A DNA stretch of 64,000 nucleotides from Escherichia coli (lineage in GTDB: Bacteria; Pseudomonadota; Gammaproteobacteria; Enterobacterales; Enterobacteriaceae): assembly GCF_050320075.1 (NCBI RefSeq), contig NZ_CP190018.1. One strand, 5' to 3'. The notes under the pieces are model-generated. The model did not search any database. It was not told where the DNA came from and saw only the letters and a program-made list of their open reading frames with translations. Of this stretch, positions 5,756-57,117 are shown piece after piece (within the stretch, counting starts at the first letter, position 1; the number at the start of each line of letters is the position of its first letter). Both the position numbers and the translations under genes were made by a program.

Positions 5756-7279
5756 CTATATGATAACCTCATCAACATCTATTAAACCCCTCTCAGTGAC
5801 TTCAGAAAGCGACTGTATAGCCTCTGTAACGTTGTCTGAGGGGTTTTCTGTTATTGGTAAGGTGATTGCTTTACCGTTGTGAAAAGTTACTTTACAGCGA
5901 CGTTTAGCAGTATTTAAAACGACCTCTTTAACAGCACTTTTGATTATCAGTTGTGCTTCAATCCTTCCCGCCTTTGTAGTCAAGTCACAATCAGACAAAC
6001 AACCCACATCAATAGATTTAAGGCGTTGTGTCTCCTTCTCGATATCCGCATCAACTTGTGATAGCTCATTCTTTAGTTGTCTTAGTTTGCTGGTAATAGC
6101 GGACAAGTCTTCAATTTCAAGTGATAGCTGTACCAGCTTTTCAATATTGCTTGAGATGTGTTCACGGTGTAGCTTCAGTGTGTCTATGGTATTCGTCATA
6201 TCGCTATCAAATCGGTCAAGACGAGATAGCAGGGCAAGCAATGTACCATCGGTTTGCTTACGTGAAAGTCCTTTAGCACTACAACGGTTTTCATTACGAA
6301 GAGGACAACGATAAATCCCGTTTCTTGTATCGCTAAAGCCTGTGATAATCAAAGCATGACCACATTCAGAACAACGGATAACACCTTTGAAAAGATTCAC
6401 AGCCATTGGCTTATCTGAAGCAGGTTTTCTACCGTAACGAGCATATGATAGTTGTTGAACTTTGTAGAATGTTGTTTCATCTATAATTGCAGGATAATAA
6501 CCAGATATCTCCTCACAGCCTTTAGGTGTGAAGTAACCAATTACAGAGCGATTCTTCAAAAGGTCTTGCACTGAGGTTTGACCAAACTTACCTGCTTTGT
6601 ACTGGTTAAGCGTCTGGTGACCTTCAGCATTAAGAGTTCTGACAATCTCCCAGATAGACTTACCCTCTAACCGTAGCTGAAAGCACCTCTTCACAGTCTC
6701 CACTTTCTCAGGTATCACAGAGAAGCTTTTACGGTCATCATTAAGCTTAAGCCATGCAGGACAACGCCTAGAAATCTTGATACCAGCTTTAGCAGCTTCT
6801 TTCTTTGCATCCCATGCAGCTTGTATACGCTCAGCCTTACGTAATGATTCCTCATGCGCCCTTTGCATTATCAAAATGCTTTTAATCAGAGCTAACGGGT
6901 CTTTAAGAGATTCCCTTGTGTAATGTTCACCATCGGACAGGGTGACTACATCTACACCAGAGCGAAGAATGTTTCTGAGTAGCTCACTTGCTTGGTCTAC
7001 GTCCTGACGTGAGAGACGGTCTAAACTCTCGATTAGTAGTGTATCACCAGCTTTAACAAGCCCTTTCTCGATAGCGGTTAAAAAGTCACCTAAGCCACCT
7101 TTCAAGTGCTTACCAGTGAACCCGCTAACGCCTAAATCACGAAAAGTAAGGGATTCATCCAGATAGTACTCAGGATGAGCCTTAAGCCAATCAGTGACCA
7201 TCTTAGCCTGTCGTCTTAATGAGTCGCCTCTGGATTGCTTCTCAGATGAAAACCGGATGTAACTGATTGCACGTTTCAT
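5756..7279 (-). CDS. large serine recombinase (phage-type serine integrase), 507 aa
   Basis: N-terminal resolvase-type catalytic domain (ISYIRFSSEKQSRGDSL...LLIESLDRLSRQ), a central recombinase region, a cysteine-rich zinc-ribbon-like motif (CSECGHALIITG...YRCPLRNENRCSAKG) and a coiled-coil C-terminus; convergent with the cargo genes and adjacent to the host junction. Confidence 0.85.
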   Translation of the reverse strand: MKRAISYIRFSSEKQSRGDSLRRQAKMVTDWLKAHPEYYLDESLTFRDLGVSGFTGKHLKGGLGDFLTAIEKGLVKAGDTLLIESLDRLSRQDVDQASELLRNILRSGVDVVTLSDGEHYTRESLKDPLALIKSILIMQRAHEESLRKAERIQAAWDAKKEAAKAGIKISRRCPAWLKLNDDRKSFSVIPEKVETVKRCFQLRLEGKSIWEIVRTLNAEGHQTLNQYKAGKFGQTSVQDLLKNRSVIGYFTPKGCEEISGYYPAIIDETTFYKVQQLSYARYGRKPASDKPMAVNLFKGVIRCSECGHALIITGFSDTRNGIYRCPLRNENRCSAKGLSRKQTDGTLLALLSRLDRFDSDMTNTIDTLKLHREHISSNIEKLVQLSLEIEDLSAITSKLRQLKNELSQVDADIEKETQRLKSIDVGCLSDCDLTTKAGRIEAQLIIKSAVKEVVLNTAKRRCKVTFHNGKAITLPITENPSDNVTEAIQSLSEVTERGLIDVDEVII

Positions 7280-7346
7280 TGTTCACCTCACCAATAGCAG
7301 TTGGGCTTGTACCAACCCCTAGATTGTATCGCTTTAGATGGTGTAT

Positions 7347-7841
7347 TTAAACGTGTCTAATAAAAATCACCCGATTAACGCCGCGCTGATGTAAACCGCG
7401 ATTAAGCGTTTGTTCCTCTTCCCCTTTGGCGAAAAACTGTGGATGGCGGACTTCCACACCATAATTAAATTCGCCGGGAAGGGAATCGAGAAAATGCCAA
7501 AGCGCAGGCAGATCCCGTGGGCCAAATGTGGCAGGCAGTTGCAGCCAGTATTGCCCAATGCGCGGCGCTAACGGTGACATGCGGGTCAAAAATTCAGTCA
7601 CTAAATCATCGCAATGCCGTAATGCTGCCTGATGCGAAATGGTCGCCGGAAACTTAAAACAGAAGCGAAAATTATCTGTGGTCTGCTCACGCCAGCGCAG
7701 GACAACCTCGGATTTCGGCAGGGCGTAAAGCGTGGTGTTGCCCTCCACACAGTTAAAGTGGCGGGCATACTCTTCAAGGCTGGTGATCCCCAACCGCACC
7801 CATTTAGGATGCGACCATTGCGGCAGACCGATGTAAATCAT
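7347..7841 (-). pseudogene. yecE: yecE (DUF72 family), 5' portion only: reading frame interrupted by the insertion
   Basis: N-terminus [29 protein letters not shown] matches recalled YecE; the frame stops after 164 codons (intact YecE is about 272 aa from memory) exactly where GC-rich host sequence changes to the AT-rich element. Confidence 0.7.
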
Positions 7842-12985: not shown

Positions 12986-13259
12986 GTTGTCATTCCATTG
13001 AAATAGATACGAATATACGTAATAGCATAAAAAATTTATTTTTTCAGGAGGCGCAATGTATATTTTTATTACGCATTTCTTCACTGAATATGTAATATTA
13101 AAATATTTGCTTCCAATATAACCTGTAGAACAAATTATACTGTGCCATTTTTCAGATCATCGGGACACCTCGCAAGTTTTCTTCATCCTTCGCTGGATAT
13201 CTATCCAGCATTTTTTTATCATACAGCATTATCTTTGATTCATTACGCAGGAGCGTCAT

Positions 13260-13871
13260 GTGATAGGCAGACTCAGAGGCATCATCATTGAAAAACAACC
13301 CCCGCTGGTGTTAATTGAAGTGGGCGGCGTAGGCTATGAAGTGCATATGCCGATGACCTGTTTTTATGAACTCCCTGAAGCGGGTCAGGAAGCGATCGTT
13401 TTCACCCACTTTGTGGTGCGTGAAGACGCGCAACTGCTGTACGGTTTTAACAATAAACAAGAGCGCACATTGTTCAAAGAGTTGATCAAAACCAACGGCG
13501 TCGGCCCGAAGTTAGCGCTGGCGATCCTCTCCGGAATGTCAGCGCAGCAGTTCGTTAATGCCGTTGAGCGTGAAGAAGTGGGGGCACTGGTGAAACTGCC
13601 GGGTATTGGCAAAAAAACCGCCGAACGCTTGATTGTTGAAATGAAAGACCGATTTAAAGGTTTGCATGGCGATCTCTTTACGCCAGCCGCCGACCTGGTA
13701 CTCACGTCTCCTGCCAGCCCGGCGACCGACGATGCTGAACAAGAAGCGGTTGCCGCGCTGGTGGCGCTGGGCTATAAACCACAAGAAGCAAGCCGCATGG
13801 TGAGCAAAATCGCTCGCCCTGACGCCAGCAGTGAAACATTAATTCGCGAAGCCCTACGCGCCGCGTTATGA
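13260..13871 (+). CDS. ruvA: Holliday junction branch-migration complex subunit RuvA
   Basis: [28 protein letters not shown]. Confidence 0.95.
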
Positions 13872-13876
13872 GGTAA

Positions 13877-14890
<1,014 letters not shown>

Positions 14891-15039: not shown

Positions 15040-15825
15040 TTAGCTGGCCTGTTTTTTCATCATACTGAGAATAAATAACAGTGCCGCGCATAGCACCACC
15101 GACGGGCCTGCTGGTGTATCGTAAAATGCGGAAAAGGTTAAACCGCCAGTCACTGCCACCATCCCCACCAAAACAGCGACACCTGCCATCTGTTCCGGCG
15201 TGCGGGCAAAGCGACGTGCAGTAGCAGCAGGAATAATTAGCAACGAAGTAATAATCAACGCGCCGACAAATTTCATCGCTACACCAATCGTCAATGCCGT
15301 CACCAGCATCAACAACAATTTCACGCGCTGTAATTTCACACCATCAACAAACGCCAGATCCGGGCTAATCGTCATCGACAGCAAATTGCGCCATTGCCAG
15401 AACAAAATCGCCACCACGATGACCACGCCAATTGCAATAGAGATGAGATCTTCTGGCGTCACTGCCAGCAAATCACCGAACAGGTAAGCCATCAAATCAA
15501 CACGAATATTAGACATCAGACTAACGACCACCAGGCCCAGCGACAGGGCACTGTGCGCCATTATCCCTAATAACGTGTCGATCGCCAGCTGTGGACGCTT
15601 CTCCAGCCATACCAGACCGCCCGCCAGCAGCAGCGTAACTGCAATCACCGCATAGAATGGATTCACGTCCAGCAACAAACCAAACGCGACACCAAGTAAT
15701 GAGGCATGGGCCAGCGTATCACCGAAATAAGACATACGACGCCAGACCACAAACGAACCCAGCGGACCCGCGGCACAGGCGAGCATGATCCCGGCTAACC
15801 AACCGGGAAATAATAATTCAATCAT
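15040..15825 (-). CDS. znuB: zinc ABC transporter permease
   Basis: 261-aa polytopic membrane protein; conserved position in the znu locus. Confidence 0.9.
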
Positions 15826-16577
15826 GAGCGATCATTTCCCCGACGCAAAACAATTCGTCCCTGTAAATCGTGACGATGATTATGATGATGGCGATAGATA
15901 CCCAGTTGTTCAGCACCACGAGGACCAAACATAGAAATAAACTCCGGATGCAGGGAAACAACTTCCGGTGTACCGGAACAACAAATGTGGTGATTCAGGC
16001 AAAGCACTTCATCGGTTTTTGCCATTACCAGATGCAGATCGTGAGAGACCATTAAAACGCCACAATCCAGTTCGCGACGCAACTGGTCAATAAGGTCATA
16101 TAACGCCACCTGACCATTCACATCCACGCCCTGAGTGGGTTCATCCAGCACTAATAATTGCGGTCGATTTAACAATGCTCGCGCTAACAATACACGCTGT
16201 GTTTCGCCACCCGAGAGCTTTTGCATCGGTGCGTTAATCAGATGCCCGGCCTGGACACGTTTCAGTGCAGGCAAAATATCTTCTTTATGTGTGCCAGGGC
16301 GTAAGCGTAAAAAACGGTTTACGGTAAGTGGCAACGTGGTGTCGAGATACAGCTTCTGCGGTACATAGCCGATGCGCAGTTTTCCGTTGCGCTTGATAAC
16401 CCCTTCATCGGGTGTTACCAGCCCGAGCACTACCCGTACCAGTGTCGACTTACCTGCGCCATTTGGCCCAAGTAAAGTCAAAATTTTTCCAGGTTTAAGT
16501 TCCAGCGACACATCAGAGAGGACGCGGCGTTGGCCAAAAGAAACCGAGACATTTTCCAGGGAAACCAGACTTGTCAT
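15822..16577 (-). CDS. znuC: zinc ABC transporter ATP-binding protein
   Basis: Walker [13 protein letters not shown] signature LSGGETQR, His-rich C-terminus. Confidence 0.9.
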
Positions 16578-16601
16578 GTTAATTTTAGTCTTGCAGTAGT
16601 C

Positions 16602-16624
16602 ATGAAATGTTATAATATCACACT
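16602..16624. promoter_or_regulatory. Zur box in the znuC/znuA divergent promoter
   Basis: Near-palindromic GAAATGTTATAATATCACAC between the divergent znuC and znuA starts, matching the recalled Zur operator. Confidence 0.55.
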
Positions 16625-16655
16625 TCTCATATTCATTACGATGATTGGTCGCATT

Positions 16656-17588
16656 ATGTTACATAAAAAAACGCTTCTTTTCGCAGCATTATCCGCCGCT
16701 CTCTGGGGCGGTGCAACACAGGCCGCAGATGCTGCCGTTGTCGCTTCGCTTAAACCCGTTGGGTTCATCGCTTCTGCCATTGCTGATGGGGTAACAGAAA
16801 CGGAGGTTTTACTACCTGACGGCGCTTCAGAACATGATTATTCACTGCGTCCATCAGATGTAAAACGCTTACAGAACGCGGACTTAGTCGTTTGGGTTGG
16901 CCCGGAGATGGAAGCGTTCATGCAAAAACCGGTAAGTAAATTACCTGAAGCGAAACAGGTAACGATTGCGCAGCTAGAGAATGTGAAACCGCTGCTGATG
17001 AAAAGTATTCACGGCGATGATGATGATCACGACCACGCGGAAAAAAGTGACGAAGATCACCATCACGGCGATTTCAACATGCATCTTTGGCTTTCCCCAG
17101 AGATAGCGCGGGCTACAGCGGTTGCAATCCATGGAAAATTAGTGGAACTTATGCCGCAAAGTCGAGCCAAACTTGACGCCAACCTGAAGGATTTTGAGGC
17201 ACAATTAGCCTCAACCGAAAAGCAGGTTGGTAACGAGCTCGCGCCGCTCAAGGGGAAAGGTTATTTCGTTTTTCACGATGCTTACGGCTATTTCGAAAAA
17301 CAGTTCGGACTGACACCGCTTGGTCATTTTACCGTTAACCCTGAGATTCAACCTGGCGCGCAGCGTTTACATGAAATAAGAACACAGTTGGTTGAGCAAA
17401 AAGCAACCTGCGTTTTTGCTGAGCCACAGTTCAGGCCAGCGGTCGTTGAGAGCGTCGCACGAGGGACATCCGTTCGTATGGGAACGTTGGATCCCCTGGG
17501 GACGAATATCAAACTGGGTAAAACAAGCTATTCAGAATTCCTGAATCAATTAGCCAACCAGTATGCGAGCTGCCTGAAAGGAGATTAA
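16656..17588 (+). CDS. znuA: zinc ABC transporter periplasmic binding protein
   Basis: Signal peptide [23 protein letters not shown] and a His/Asp-rich loop ([21 protein letters not shown]); the ORF-track start at 16530 is an in-frame upstream artefact. Confidence 0.9.
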
Positions 17589-17603: not shown

Positions 17604-18926
17604 GTGCAACAGATAGCCCGCTCTGTCGCCCTGGCGTTTAATAATTTACCGCGACCACACCGCGTTATGTTGGGGTCGCTCACCGTTCTTACTCTGGCCG
17701 TCGCTGTCTGGCGGCCCTATGTTTATCACCGCGATGCCACGCCAATTGTCAAAACCATTGAGCTGGAACAGAACGAAATTCGTTCGCTCTTACCTGAAGC
17801 CAGTGAGCCGATTGATCAAGCTGCACAAGAAGATGAAGCCATTCCCCAGGATGAACTGGATGACAAAATCGCCGGTGAAGCGGGCGTGCATGAATATGTT
17901 GTTTCCACTGGCGATACGCTAAGCAGCATTCTCAATCAGTATGGTATTGATATGGGTGATATCACCCAACTGGCTGCTGCCGACAAAGAATTGCGTAACC
18001 TGAAAATCGGTCAACAACTCTCCTGGACATTAACCGCGGACGGCGAACTGCAGCGCCTCACCTGGGAAGTGTCTCGTCGTGAAACCCGAACCTATGACCG
18101 TACTGCCGCTAACGGTTTTAAAATGACCAGCGAAATGCAGCAAGGAGAGTGGGTCAACAATCTGCTGAAAGGTACCGTCGGGGGAAGCTTTGTTGCCAGC
18201 GCCAGAAACGCCGGTTTAACCAGCGCCGAAGTGAGCGCAGTGATTAAAGCCATGCAGTGGCAAATGGATTTCCGCAAACTGAAAAAAGGCGATGAATTTG
18301 CGGTGTTAATGTCACGAGAAATGCTTGATGGTAAACGTGAGCAAAGCCAACTGCTGGGCGTACGTTTGCGTTCAGAAGGTAAAGATTATTACGCAATCCG
18401 CGCTGAAGATGGCAAATTCTATGATCGTAACGGTACTGGTCTGGCGAAAGGATTCTTGCGATTCCCGACGGCGAAACAGTTCCGTATCTCGTCTAACTTT
18501 AACCCGCGTCGTACTAATCCGGTGACTGGTCGTGTTGCGCCACACAGAGGTGTTGATTTCGCCATGCCACAGGGTACGCCGGTGCTTTCAGTGGGTGACG
18601 GTGAAGTGGTGGTTGCCAAACGCAGTGGCGCAGCAGGTTATTATGTGGCTATTCGTCATGGTCGCAGCTACACCACGCGTTATATGCACTTGCGCAAGAT
18701 TCTGGTGAAACCGGGACAGAAGGTGAAACGTGGCGACCGTATCGCGCTTTCCGGTAATACCGGACGTTCAACCGGGCCGCATCTGCACTATGAAGTATGG
18801 ATAAACCAGCAGGCCGTAAACCCGCTGACGGCAAAACTGCCGCGTACCGAAGGGCTGACCGGCTCCGATCGTCGCGAATTCCTGGCGCAGGCCAAAGAGA
18901 TTGTGCCGCAGCTACGGTTTGATTAA
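17604..18926 (+). CDS. mepM: murein DD-endopeptidase MepM (M23 peptidase with LysM domain)
   Basis: 440-aa ORF with a LysM segment and M23 motifs ([15 protein letters not shown]). Confidence 0.9.
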
Positions 18927-19045: not shown

Positions 19046-20017
19046 ATGGAAACGAAAAAAAATAATAGCGAATACATTCCTGAGTTTGATAAATCCTTTC
19101 GCCACCCGCGCTACTGGGGAGCATGGCTGGGCGTAGCAGCGATGGCGGGTATTGCTTTAACGCCGCCAAAGTTTCGCGACCCCATTCTGGCACGGCTGGG
19201 ACGTTTTGCCGGACGCCTGGGAAAAAGCTCACGCCGTCGTGCGTTAATCAATTTGTCGCTCTGCTTTCCAGAACGTAGTGAAGCTGAACGCGAAGCGATT
19301 GTTGATGAGATGTTTGCCACCGCGCCGCAAGCGATGGCAATGATGGCTGAGTTGGCAATACGCGGGCCGGAGAAAATTCAGCCGCGCGTTGACTGGCAAG
19401 GGCTGGAGATTATCGAAGAGATGCGACGTAATAACGAGAAAGTGATCTTTCTGGTGCCGCACGGTTGGGCCGTCGATATTCCTGCCATGCTGATGGCCTC
19501 GCAAGGGCAGAAAATGGCAGCGATGTTCCATAATCAGGGCAACCCGGTTTTTGATTATGTCTGGAACACGGTGCGTCGTCGTTTTGGCGGTCGTCTGCAT
19601 GCGAGAAATGATGGTATTAAACCATTCATCCAGTCGGTACGTCAGGGGTACTGGGGATATTATTTACCCGATCAGGATCATGGCCCAGAGCACAGCGAAT
19701 TTGTTGATTTCTTTGCCACCTATAAAGCGACGTTGCCCGCGATTGGTCGTTTGATGAAAGTGTGCCGTGCGCACGTTGTACCGCTGTTTCCGATTTATGA
19801 TGGCAAGACGCATCGCCTGACGATTCAGGTGCGCCCACCGATGGATGATCTGTTAGAGGCAGATGACCATACGATTGCGCGGCGGATGAATGAAGAAGTC
19901 GAGATTTTTGTTGGTCCGCGACCAGAACAATACACCTGGATATTAAAATTGCTGAAAACTCGCAAGCCGGGCGAAATCCAACCGTATAAGCGCAAAGATC
20001 TTTATCCCATCAAATAA
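19046..20017 (+). CDS. lpxM: lipid A myristoyltransferase LpxM
   Basis: [27 protein letters not shown], LpxL/LpxM acyltransferase family. Confidence 0.9.
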
Positions 20018-22588: not shown

Positions 22589-22925
22589 GATGTAAAGAGA
22601 CTCACGGGTAATGACGATTTCCGCACTGAAAGAAATCGAAATGCAGTTTTGTCAGATATTACGCCTGTGTGCTGTGTTAATGACAAAAGCAGATAAAAAA
22701 GTTGTTATTTTTTTTCATAACATGATCAGTGTCAGATTTTTACCCAATGGAAAACGATGATTTTTTTATCAGTTTTGCCGCACTTTGCGCGCTTTTACCG
22801 TAATCGCACGGGTGGATAAGCGTTTACAGTTTTCGCAAGCTCGTAAAAGCAGTACAGTGCACCGTAAGAAAATTACAAGTATACCCTGGCTTAAGTACCG
22901 GGATAGTTAACTTAAGGAGAATGAC

Positions 22926-37712: not shown

Positions 37713-37795
37713 TTTAAGCTGATGGCCACCGCGCTTTTTATTGACCATTTTGCACGCAAACTGGAAAACCTGGCGTCGTCATCTATTCTTAAAGG

Positions 37796-37898
37796 GCAAG
37801 GCAACTAAGCCTGCATTAATGCCAACTTTTAGCGCACGGCTCTCTCCCAAGAGCCATTTCCCTGGACCGAATACAGGAATCGTGTTCGGTCTCTTTTT
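37796..37898 (+). ncRNA. sdsR: small RNA SdsR (RyeB); the antisense sRNA RyeA (SraC) is expected to overlap on the - strand
   Basis: GCAAGGCAACTAAGCCTGCATTAATGCCAACTTTTAGCGCACGGCTCTCTCCCAAGAGCC...CGAATACAGGAATCGTGTTCGGTCTCTTTTT matches the recalled SdsR sequence, including its terminator hairpin and U-tail; located between yebY and pphA as expected. Confidence 0.7.
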
Positions 37899-38032
37899 AT
37901 CTGTTAAAAGCCAGAAGCATTCCCTTCGCTGACTTTATAGTCAACCATAACACACACTCTACTGTCTGAGTCCAGCGTTTTTTAACATTCTTGTTAAGAT
38001 TATGTGATCTTTAGCGCGGGAGGAAAATATTG

Positions 38033-52741: not shown

Positions 52742-53410
52742 TCCTTCCTCAATCTTGAGTAACCCCGTCGTTGAAGGGTTACTCAATTCATCCTGATTAT
52801 ACGCACTGTCATGGTGCAACTGCTTCAAATTAAAACTCTGGTCTGACTTCAAATAATTATCATATTATTTATTTGCGTAACGGGATATCAGAAAAAGATA
52901 TTTAGCCCATTAATTTATTAGGATGTTTACATCGGATTTGTGATTAAGCGTGGTATTATTTATTAGCGAAACGTTTCTCTCTTGATTTTTTTGCGCATTC
53001 ATCAATTTTTCTTATTTTAAATTTACAATACCTTTGGCGATTGACTTCTCTTTGGGGTGATCGATAGCCGTTAACTGACTGTTTTATGAGAAAAATTGAT
53101 ATAACTTTTTATTCATTGCATAGCAGAAAATGTGATATTGCACGCACTATGTAATAACTTCTCCCACTGGCCTGGAACAACTGAACTTATTGAACTATGT
53201 TAGAAAATACGTCAGTTTAAGTATCTGCCTGAACTGGCAAGGTTAAGCACAATGATATATCGGCGCGTATTCCGTTGCATAAGTGTGCAAAAAAAGTGGA
53301 AGACGTATCGAGATTTGTGCGTCTGATCGAGACATGTTTAAAAATGGCTTGCCATAATTAACGTTGTATGTGATAACAGATTTCGGGTTAAACGAGGTAC
53401 AGTTCTGTTT

Positions 53411-53554
53411 ATGTGTGGCATTTTCAGTAAAGAAGTCCTGAGTAAACACGTTGACGTTGAATACCGCTTCTCTGCCGAGCCTTATATTGGTGCCTCATGC
53501 AGTAATGTGTCAGTTTTATCTATGTTATGCCTGCGGGCGAAGAAAACAATCTAA
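53411..53554 (+). CDS. yobF: small protein YobF (47 aa)
   Basis: [47 protein letters not shown], 13 bp upstream of cspC; too short for the ORF track. Confidence 0.75.
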
Positions 53555-53566
53555 GGAATTTTTCAA

Positions 53567-53776
53567 ATGGCAAAGATTAAAGGTCAGGTTAAGTGGTTCA
53601 ACGAGTCTAAAGGTTTTGGCTTCATTACTCCGGCTGATGGCAGCAAAGACGTGTTCGTACACTTCTCTGCAATCCAGGGTAATGGTTTCAAAACTCTGGC
53701 TGAAGGTCAGAACGTTGAGTTCGAAATTCAGGACGGTCAGAAAGGTCCGGCAGCTGTTAACGTAACAGCTATCTGA
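53567..53776 (+). CDS. cspC: cold-shock-family protein CspC
   Basis: [37 protein letters not shown]. Confidence 0.95.
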
Positions 53777-53822
53777 TCGAATCCACTGATCTGAAGTGTG
53801 AATACGCTTCAATCTCGCTATA

Positions 53823-53850
53823 AAGCCTCGTCGAATGCGAGGCTTTTTAC
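53823..53850 (+). terminator. rho-independent terminator after cspC
   Basis: AAAGCCTCG-TCGAATG-CGAGGCTTTTT. Confidence 0.6.
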
Positions 53851-53941
53851 TTTGCTTTATCTTCGCTCCAGTCGTTCGGATATTTGCCCGCCGCGTGATT
53901 CGCGTTACACTTGCGGCCTTTAGTATCCTGCCGGAGTTGTC

Positions 53942-54751: not shown

Positions 54752-55314
54752 CCGTGGAAGTGCGTCCAGAGGATCTGGACGCCGATGCCGATCAGCACCA
54801 GCCCGCCGAGAATTTCCGCTTTTTTCCCAATAATTGAGCCGATAAAGCGACCAACCATCATCCCTAATGTCGACATAATCAAGGTTGCACAACCAATGGC
54901 CAATGCGGTCGCGATAATGTTGACCTGAAGGAAAGCAAGACCAACACCCACAGCCATGGCATCCAGGCTGGTGGCAATCGCGGTGGTTACCAGTAGCCAG
55001 AAACCGTGTCGACGGCGCGGCTCTTCATCTTCATCATCTGCGCCACGAAAACCCTCAATAATCATTCGCCCGCCGAGGAATATCAGCAGCACAAACGCAA
55101 TCCAGTGGTTCCATTCAAGAACAAACCGGCTGGCTAACATGCCCATTCCCCAGCCGATCAGCGGCGTCAGGGTTTCGACGGCACCAAAAATAAGGCCGGT
55201 TCGCAACGCTTCAGAAAATTTCGGTTTATGGAGGGTGGCACCTTTACCGATTGATGCAGCAAATGCATCCATCGACATACCAAACGCAAGAAGAACAGTA
55301 GCAGTGATATTCAT
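54748..55314 (-). CDS. mntP: manganese efflux pump MntP
   Basis: [25 protein letters not shown]; 188 aa after trimming. Confidence 0.9.
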
Positions 55315-55329
55315 GACAACGTCCTGACC

Positions 55330-55550
55330 GGGGTATCCATAAAACACATCATCGCCCCCAGCAAACATGCATACATGAACAACAAGCCGCGATGGTTTTC
55401 GCGTTCATGCAGGCATAGCGATTGATGTGCATATGGTCTCGCCTGACTGAAAGTGTTCAGTCCGTACGTGCCACGTTTTGCAACGAGTATGTTGACACGT
55501 ACATTTCCGGAATCTGGAAATCGGCTACTCCCCAAATGAGGGCGCAACCT
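55330..55550 (-). ncRNA. yybP-ykoY-type manganese riboswitch in the mntP leader; boundaries approximate
   Basis: The long mntP 5' leader contains the conserved GGGGAGUAG element (plus-strand CTACTCCCC at 55525-55533). Confidence 0.5.
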
Positions 55551-55685
55551 TAACATATTTTGAGAATATAAAACAACTGTTGGAATATATTATTTCATTG
55601 CTTTATTGATAACGATTTTCATTTAGATTTATATATCAATGAAACGTTAAAATAAATAACAAATAAGGGAAGAGGTAATATAGCC

Positions 55686-55737
55686 TTAGCTATGTCTGAT
55701 TATTAAAAATACACTAAACATAGCTTTGGCTAAATTC
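55686..55737. promoter_or_regulatory. MntR-box-like inverted repeat upstream of mntP
   Basis: AGCTATGT (55688-55695) and ACATAGCT (55718-55725) form an inverted repeat; the AAACATAGC half-site resembles the recalled MntR operator. Confidence 0.4.
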
Positions 55738-55742
55738 ATAAC

Positions 55743-56201
55743 TTATTGAGTTGAAACGAGAAGCTTATAAATTTTTTCCAGATCGTCGATATTTCGAACG
55801 CGGATTAACAGCCGACGCTGTTCTAATTGCATCACCAACACGCCATCTTCCGACAAGTTCATCGCTTTGATTCGGCTATATTCAATCCAGACATTGGCGA
55901 AGAAAAAACCTTTTTGTTTAAAGATGATCTTCGGAACGCGGATCCAGAATATATAAAAACCCATCAGAGCCAGTGCACTTAATAACCATGTTGTTATTAG
56001 CGCGCCATGATTCGTGACGTTGTTATAGATAAGAATGACAATCAATCCGACGAAGATAACGCTATCGATGCGACCACGCCGGAGCAAAGGAATTGCCAGC
56101 AGAGTGGGGCCGTTACGGCGGGGCATGATGAACTGATCGTAGATCGCGAAGGCCAGGAGTGCGGCGATGAAAAGAATCAGTACCAGGTCCGTGATTGTCA
56201 T
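55743..56201 (-). CDS. yobD: inner-membrane protein YobD
   Basis: ORF-track ORF trimmed to [18 protein letters not shown], giving 152 aa. Confidence 0.75.
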
Positions 56202-56256
56202 TAATCCTCCAGATAAAAAAAACGGGGCCAAAAGGCCCCGGTAGTGTACAACAGTC

Positions 56257-57117
56257 TTACAGTCCCAGCAGGCCGCAAGCGTAACCAGCGATACCGATGA
56301 CGAAGAAGCCAACGATGATCCACAGCGGGTTAACTTTTTTGCGCAGTAGCCACATACAAGCAAAGGTCAGCAGCAGTGGTACCAGGCCTGGCATTAACTG
56401 GTCCAGAATAGTCTGGACAGTGGTAACGTGCTCTTTGCCCGTCTGGTCAGTAATGCGAGAGACAACCAGCGGGATGTTGACATGCGTCCACTTGTTAACT
56501 AATGCCCCCATGACAAACAGGCCGAGGATAGACGCCCCTTCCGTCAGTTTTTGCAGGAAACCACCACCCATATCTTTAACGATATCGATACCTTTGGAGT
56601 AACCATACGCTACGCCGTAGTAACGGGTTGCCAGACGCACCAGGTTAAACAAGATGAAGAACAGCAGCGGACCTAACAGGCTGCCGCTCATTGCGATACC
56701 GGCACCCAGCGCTGCAAATACCGGACGTACGGTTCCCCAGAAGATCGGATCGCCTACACCAGCCAGCGGCCCCATCAAACCGACTTTGATACCGTTGATA
56801 GCACCGTCATCGATCTCTGCGCCATTAGCACGCTGTTCTTCCAGCGCCAGGGTTACGCCGAGAATCGGCGCAGCCACGAACGGCTGGGTGTTAAAGAACT
56901 CCAGGTGACGGCGAATAGCTTGTTTACGAGCTTCGTTGTTCTCAGGGTAGAGGCGACGAATTGCCGGTACCATAGAGAAGCAGAAACCCAGTGCCTGCAT
57001 ACGTTCGAAGTTCCATGAACCCTGGAAGAGGTTAGAACGCAGGAAGACGCCACGAATATCACTTTGAGTGAGTTTTTTCTCGGTGGTAGTTTGAGTTGTA
57101 TCAACCATTTCGCTCAC
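56257..57117 (-). CDS. manZ: mannose PTS enzyme IID
   Basis: 286-aa [31 protein letters not shown]. Confidence 0.95.

Follow-up and report, generated by a model that had tools for sequence, protein, structure and literature searches.

The 64-kb stretch of DNA that we analyzed (here called the window) is part of the E. coli chromosome and carries the zinc-acquisition genes znuB and znuC on the minus strand, followed by znuA and mepM on the plus strand, with ruvA and ruvB on one side of this group and lpxM on the other (Table 1). NCBIfam equivalog models for ZnuA, ZnuC, ZnuB, and MepM all scored well above their curated cut-offs. The start codon of znuC lies at 16577 (minus strand) and the ATG of znuA at 16656 (plus strand), so that the gap between them (16578 to 16655) is exactly 78 bp, the length that an earlier note made from the letters of this DNA had given for its divergent promoter region. 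A longer open reading frame of 352 amino acids, running from a TTG at 16530, was rejected as znuA; the annotated ATG is that at 16656. Zur is the zinc uptake regulator of the Fur family; its gene lies outside the 64-kb window, and E. coli is known to possess it (b4046 in K-12). From ruvA to lpxM the DNA is 97.96% identical to that of K-12. Of 5426 complete E. coli genomes, 5425 contain the region from 16400 to 16860, several of them with 100% identity and only 1176 with at least 99% identity over its 461 bp. For each of two queries (16400 to 16860 and 55000 to 56400), one of about 5400 matching places belonged to a record labeled as a plasmid; the replicon may be mislabeled, or a large piece of the chromosome may reside on a plasmid.

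Table 1. Genes, operator elements, promoter elements, and RNAs located in the window
Feature	Position	Strand	Basis or remark
ruvA	13260-13871	+	ORF map and RefSeq annotation of K-12 and an identical strain
ruvB	13880-14890	+	ORF map and RefSeq annotation
znuB	15040-15825	-	NCBIfam ZnuB, 534.7 bits, above curated cut-off; 260/261 residues identical to K-12
znuC (ATPase)	15822-16577	-	NCBIfam ZnuC, 535.6 bits, above curated cut-off; 251/251 residues identical to K-12
znuA (periplasmic zinc-binding protein)	16656-17588	+	NCBIfam ZnuA, 525.6 bits; 306/310 residues identical to K-12
mepM	17604-18926	+	NCBIfam MepM, 891.6 bits
lpxM	19046-20017	+	ORF map and RefSeq annotation
TTGCAG, likely znuA -35 hexamer	16591-16596	+	-34 to -29 of the znuA start; 16-bp spacer to TAATAT
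Published E. coli Zur-protected region, AAGTGTGATATTATAACATTTCATGACTA, 29 nt	16597-16625	-	Exact match to the region as quoted in PMC2490734
20-bp two-dimer recognition element, TGAAATGTTATAATATCACA	16603-16622		Exact match to the pattern of Gilston et al. (2014)
23-bp Zur box, gamma-proteobacterial type, GAAATGTTATAATATCACACTTC	16604-16626		Dyad center 16615
18-bp skeleton within the recognition element, RNNNYRNNRYNNYRNNNY	16604-16621		Dyad between 16612 and 16613
znuCB start	16606	-	K-12 1942633, forward; operon of b1858 and b1859; 29-nt leader
znuA -10 region, TG-T-TATAAT, extended -10	16608-16618 (hexamer 16611-16616)	+	Direct reading
znuCB -10 region, TG-T-GATATT or TG-A-TATTAT, extended -10 type	16612-16622	-	Direct reading
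znuA and znuA-mepM start	16625 (alternative 16627)	+	K-12 1942614, reverse (also 1942612); 41 reads; 31-nt leader
SraC/RyeA small RNA	37758-37902 region	-	Rfam gathering level, 175 bits
SdsR/RyeB small RNA, overlapping antisense to SraC/RyeA	37758-37902 region	+	Rfam gathering level, 114 bits
cspA-type thermoregulator leader	53391-53851		Rfam gathering level, 138 bits

The gap between znuC and znuA contains a 23-bp Zur box that overlaps the core promoter of the zinc-acquisition genes. Nine of the 11 arm pairs of the full 23-mer are complementary about 16615, and a second, weaker dyad (7 of 11 arm pairs) is found about 16612.5. The earlier note had placed a near-palindromic Zur operator, centered between the divergent genes, at 16594 to 16660. 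The operator is indeed there, and both of the checks that the note had proposed bore it out, but the span was drawn loosely: it contains the box, cuts through TTGCAG on its left, and enters the znuA start codon on its right. The description of the site as near-palindromic holds for the 23-mer but not for the 20-mer that had been quoted, GAAATGTTATAATATCACAC (16604 to 16623), which is asymmetric about its own center because the right arm was quoted without its final TTC. "Centered" is roughly right, in that the box center (16615) and the structural dyad (16612.5) lie within 1.5 to 4 bp of the intergenic midpoint at 16616.5.

Formal scoring identified the box by three routes. Against the 23-bp gamma-proteobacterial consensus GAAATGTTATANTATAACATTTC, also written GAAATGTTATA-N-TATAACATTTC, the site has 2 mismatches at 22 specified bases and is the sole match in 64 kb with three or fewer mismatches; a chance palindrome was rejected, since none of 100 shuffled sequences yielded a match. 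The structure-derived pattern TGWNAYRWTATAWYRTNWCA, which describes two overlapping RNNNYxxxRNNNY dimer sites with a central TATA, is matched exactly at 16603 to 16622; the bare purine/pyrimidine skeleton is unspecific and occurs 242 times in the window. For the weight-matrix scan that had been proposed as a check, the matrix was built from the K-12 zinT, ykgM, and pliG operators only, the znu site being left out to avoid circularity. With this znu-free matrix the znu site scored 22.5 bits and ranked first in the window, against a null maximum over simulated 64-kb sequences that averaged 13.4 bits (standard deviation, 1.9; largest value, 19.4). The Zur-box motif is thus far beyond chance. The second-best matrix match (17.0 bits, inside the null range) is an inverted repeat, TGTTAT-N8-ATAACA, at 22703 to 22722 in the divergent zwf/hexR intergenic region; it is without the central TATA and is not a credible Zur site, and it may be the operator of another regulator.

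The site is the textbook znu Zur operator, and as such it is already known and holds no new biology. The znuA/znuCB operator of K-12 was reportedly described by Patzer and Hantke in 2000 and by Outten and O'Halloran in 2001. The intergenic region of the window differs from that of K-12 MG1655 at a single position, 16643 (G/T), which lies outside the box. Binding of Zur to the K-12 operator has been established by footprinting, gel shift, mutagenesis, and a crystal structure (PMC4219657), and structures of Zur-operator complexes were solved by Gilston et al. in 2014 (PDB 4MTD/4MTE). The protected region, as quoted from the primary footprinting papers in PMC2490734, is found in the window without a mismatch, which bears out the comparison with the characterized operator that the earlier note had suggested.

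In the (Zur2)2-DNA structure (PDB 4MTD), Arg65 and Tyr45 hydrogen-bond G7, A11', A12, A15, A16', G19', A20, and G24' (Gilston et al.), and these fit the sequence of the window in a single register, in which position p corresponds to 16628 - p on the minus strand and which assigns the eight contacts to 16621, 16617, 16616, 16613, 16612, 16609, 16608, and 16604, respectively. The register was derived from the published list of contacted bases, and the mapping was verified base by base; the 31-mer of the crystal would span approximately 16597 to 16627, in agreement with the footprint. Mutation of contacted purines weakens Zur binding, and the central A/T pairs matter most (Gilston et al.). Zinc-loaded Zur binds the znu operator as a cooperative dimer of dimers, with a Kd-app of 8.2e-18 M^2, and in vivo repression at znuC is 6.6-fold; znuC is among the weaker Zur operators (Gilston et al.), despite the high matrix score obtained here. 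Operator function in this strain is predicted from a sequence identical to that of the K-12 operator, for which zinc-dependent Zur binding and derepression in a zur mutant are documented in the literature.

Published transcription start sites place both promoters on the box. They were taken from SMRT-Cappable-seq of MG1655 (PMC6131387, Supplementary Data 1 and 2) and converted by subtracting the K-12 coordinate from 1959239, a conversion verified on both start codons. The znuA and znuCB starts lie back to back, 19 bp apart and both within the box, which extends from -21 to +2 of the former and from -20 to +3 of the latter; both mapped starts coincide with T residues, and an error of one or two bases is possible. 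Together with a literature that describes the znu promoter as bidirectional, active in both directions in vivo, and subject to competition between Zur and RNA polymerase, the starts at 16625 and 16606 (PMC6131387) support the claim that both transcription units are repressed. The right-hand unit is znuA-mepM, a refinement of the earlier reading: the znuA start gives rise to operon variants comprising b1857 alone and b1857 with b1856, and read-through znuA-mepM transcripts were observed (PMC6131387); co-transcription and zinc-dependent regulation of mepM have also been reported in the literature. Published starts for mepM-lpxM and mepM lie inside znuA at 17158 and 17213, respectively, on the plus strand (K-12 1942081 and 1942026), so mepM has promoters of its own besides read-through from znuA, and these are presumably Zur independent. 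Further znuC/znuCB starts are recorded upstream of the operator, at 16650 and 16682 on the minus strand (K-12 1942589 and 1942557; PMC6131387), one of them inside the znuA coding sequence; transcripts from these positions would be antisense to the 5' end of znuA and would cross the Zur-bound operator.

The registers of the -10 and -35 elements at both promoters are assigned here by inspection and should be taken as probable. The earlier note had seen a TATAAT-like element overlapping the palindrome, and TATAAT is present in the box, at -14 to -9 of the mapped znuA start, but the working register may differ: the overlapping TAATAT (16613 to 16618) occupies the canonical -12 to -7 of the start at 16625, so that it is uncertain whether TATAAT is the working hexamer, and both are possible. 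The -10 elements of the two promoters share base pairs at approximately 16611 to 16619 on opposite strands. TTGCAG appears to serve as a -35 hexamer. Its TTGC is invariant, and the next A nearly so, in an alignment of 34 species; in Vibrio, the distance from TTGCA to the Zur box is 3 bp shorter, whereas that to the znuC start codon is still about 13 nt. It is probably the znuA -35 element; given the Vibrio spacing, a role in the znuC leader is an alternative or additional possibility. A simple sigma-70 scan of 16450 to 16800, which required four of six matches per hexamer, found no promoter because TTGCAG matches at three of six positions only. Cappable-seq data (PMC4782308) contained no corresponding entries, and Rfam gave no family match in 16400 to 16800 at E values up to 1, so a structured leader RNA is unsupported there.

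Conservation was assessed on a set of loci chosen independently of the operator. One genome per species was searched with a DNA pattern for the peptide FHDAYGYF, which yielded 120 ZnuA loci, and tblastn with the ZnuA and ZnuC proteins of the window was used to retain those in which znuC and znuA are divergent neighbors separated by no more than 160 bp. The 56 loci kept belong to the Enterobacterales, Vibrionales, and Orbales, and all 56 have a GTTATA-type core (GTGATA in one Vibrio), the center of which lies 32 to 41 bp from the znuC start codon in most and up to 71 bp away in loci with a longer gap. When 34 of these species, from about 20 genera, were aligned with MAFFT, the sole conserved intergenic columns were TTGC(A) at 16591 to 16595 and a block at 16606 to 16622, the remainder being essentially unconstrained. 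The columns from 16608 to 16618 are invariant or nearly so, and the central TATA is invariant. The alignment has an information content of 1.4 bits or more at seven of the eight contact positions, the outermost, 16604, being variable; at 16617 the only change is from A to G, which keeps the purine. Within E. coli, 5124 of 5426 complete genomes carry the 45-bp core from 16588 to 16632 without any difference. Since the promoter elements and the Zur contacts are superimposed, the conservation of the core could partly reflect promoter function rather than contacts with Zur.

Some loci of the wider set are organized differently. In the Pasteurellales, znuA is found without an adjacent znuC (e.g., loci L010, L018, L034, L040, and L066), so not all gamma-proteobacteria have the divergent layout with one operator. 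Rhodobacterales loci show an apparent znuC-znuA gap of 530 to 600 bp that probably contains a gene. The one such locus inspected, L014 from Paracoccus versutus, has a Fur-family gene in the gap (7160 to 7734), with the NCBIfam Zur model as its sole match (105 bits, below the 167-bit cut-off), and a Zur-type box in the approximately 80-bp gap adjoining znuA; there the regulator gene would head the divergent operon.

We conclude that the site is almost certainly the Zur operator in the bidirectional znuA/znuCB promoter of E. coli. At sufficient levels of cytoplasmic zinc, a pair of zinc-loaded Zur dimers would bind cooperatively to opposite faces of the DNA at approximately 16597 to 16627, each monomer reading one R-N-N-N-Y element through Arg65 and Tyr45, with the central TATA setting the site apart from a Fur box. 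A single Zur complex would cover both -10 elements and both start sites and would keep RNA polymerase off the znuA-mepM and znuCB promoters, so that one operator could repress both units; a drop in zinc would cause Zur to depart and allow both to be transcribed. The zinc dependence of binding, the two-dimer stoichiometry, and repression are taken from the literature, and the start positions are from published data; the identity to the characterized operator, the significance of the motif, and the cross-species conservation were computed here. Nothing that we found contradicts this explanation, and formal scoring, cross-species conservation, and the published start sites all concur on it. Through this operator the cell controls high-affinity zinc import, a factor in survival when the host withholds zinc, and the znu operator is the reference for the way in which Fur-family repressors read DNA. 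Its value in this analysis is that of a positive control: a reading of the bare letters correctly named a real 23-bp operator.

Beyond repression, the arrangement of the core suggests a tentative extension, which we hold to be possible rather than probable. The core of the box may act as two face-to-face extended -10 promoters built on the same base pairs, at which one RNA polymerase could open the DNA at a time. The two promoters would then exclude each other, and competition between znuA-mepM and znuCB might set their output ratio; Zur and polymerase on both strands would together constrain the box, and the invariant TTGCA and the extra znuCB starts at 16650 and 16682 might tune the balance.

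Among alternative or additional explanations, the one that survives best, although we regard it as rather unlikely, is that the element also contains a functional partial ZntR site through which ZntR speeds the release of Zur ("through-DNA" cross-talk), making it a two-regulator element. Partial recognition sequences overlapping Zur boxes have been reported, and apo-ZntR enhances Zur unbinding in cells as well as from a 31-bp DNA of the znuCB promoter (PMC11618457), whereas ZntR is inferred in the same study not to bind these sequences alone. When the 22-mer ZntR dyad of zntA, ACTCTGGAGTCGACTCCAGAGT, was matched as a whole against the intergenic region, the best score was 9 of 22, which 98.5% of random 78-bp windows equaled or exceeded, so the sequence signal here is indistinguishable from chance. 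The functional evidence is independent of this dyad test, and a ZntR site would in any case add to the Zur operator and not replace it.

It is highly improbable that the palindrome consists only of face-to-face extended -10 elements kept for RNA polymerase, with its likeness to a Zur box being incidental. The core (TGTTATAAT on one strand and TGTGATATTAT on the other) does present TGn and a -10 hexamer on both strands, the conserved block from 16608 to 16622 coincides with the -10 elements, and the starts at 16625 and 16606 fit them. Against this, the motif is also found at the unidirectional Zur targets zinT, ykgM, and pliG, and a matrix made from these picks out the znu site; each of the eight crystallographic contacts can be located in the sequence, mutation of contacted purines weakens binding (Gilston et al.), and the published footprint matches exactly. 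As the sole explanation, promoter function is refuted by the published zinc-dependent binding of Zur to an identical sequence; the promoter role is real and is additional to Zur binding, not an alternative to it. Still more remote is a Fur (iron) box, or a site shared with another Fur-family regulator and not specific to Zur: both kinds of box are AT-rich inverted repeats, and weak Zur-like matches also occur in the metal-regulated mntP promoter in the same window, but nowhere does the intergenic region match the 19-bp Fur consensus GATAATGATAATCATTATC with fewer than 7 mismatches, and the central TATA, which discriminates Zur from Fur sites according to Gilston et al., is present and invariant.

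The operator compares with related systems as follows. With that of K-12 znuA/znuCB it shares the locus, the 29-mer footprint, the box, the 78-bp gap, and the flanking genes, and the differences are allelic only (the base at 16643, 4 of 310 ZnuA residues, and the divergence between ruvA and lpxM given above). The zinT, ykgM-ykgO (L31p/L36p), and pliG operators have the same 20-bp two-dimer motif with central TATA, zinT matching TGWNAYRWTATAWYRTNWCA exactly and ykgM and pliG with 1 mismatch each, and all of these E. coli operators bind a dimer of dimers (Gilston et al. 2014). Each of the other three serves one promoter, whereas the znu site serves two divergent ones. The reported affinity for znuC is approximately 150 to 300 times weaker than that for zinT or L31p, and the 6.6-fold repression of znuC compares with 560- to 984-fold at those two. 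In Yersinia pestis and Erwinia amylovora, znuA and znuCB are likewise divergent, across gaps of 73 and 78 bp, with a Zur box over the -10 elements; footprints and start sites in Y. pestis are equivalent, and in Erwinia znuA is co-transcribed with a mepM homologue. Y. pestis differs in having a second protected region without a Zur box, and Erwinia in having additional c-di-GMP-dependent control. A Fur box resembles the site in belonging to the same regulator family, in being an AT-rich inverted repeat over a promoter, and in repressing by exclusion of RNA polymerase; it differs in that the znu site departs from the Fur 19-mer at 7 or more positions and carries the Zur-specific central TATA that is read by Tyr45.

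Elsewhere in the window, the region from 55445 to 55747 comprises the mntP promoter and leader. A match to the manganese (yybP-ykoY) riboswitch on the minus strand at 55445 to 55541 scored 41.9 bits, just below the Rfam gathering score of 45; upstream are MntR-like repeats (AAACATAGC...GCTATG, approximately 55681 to 55730) and two weak Zur/Fur-like matches (55578 to 55597 and 55640 to 55659) with chance-level scores. About 50 bp upstream of ruvA, at 13193 to 13208, is the sequence CTGGATATCTATCCAG, which we take to have the form of a LexA (SOS) box.
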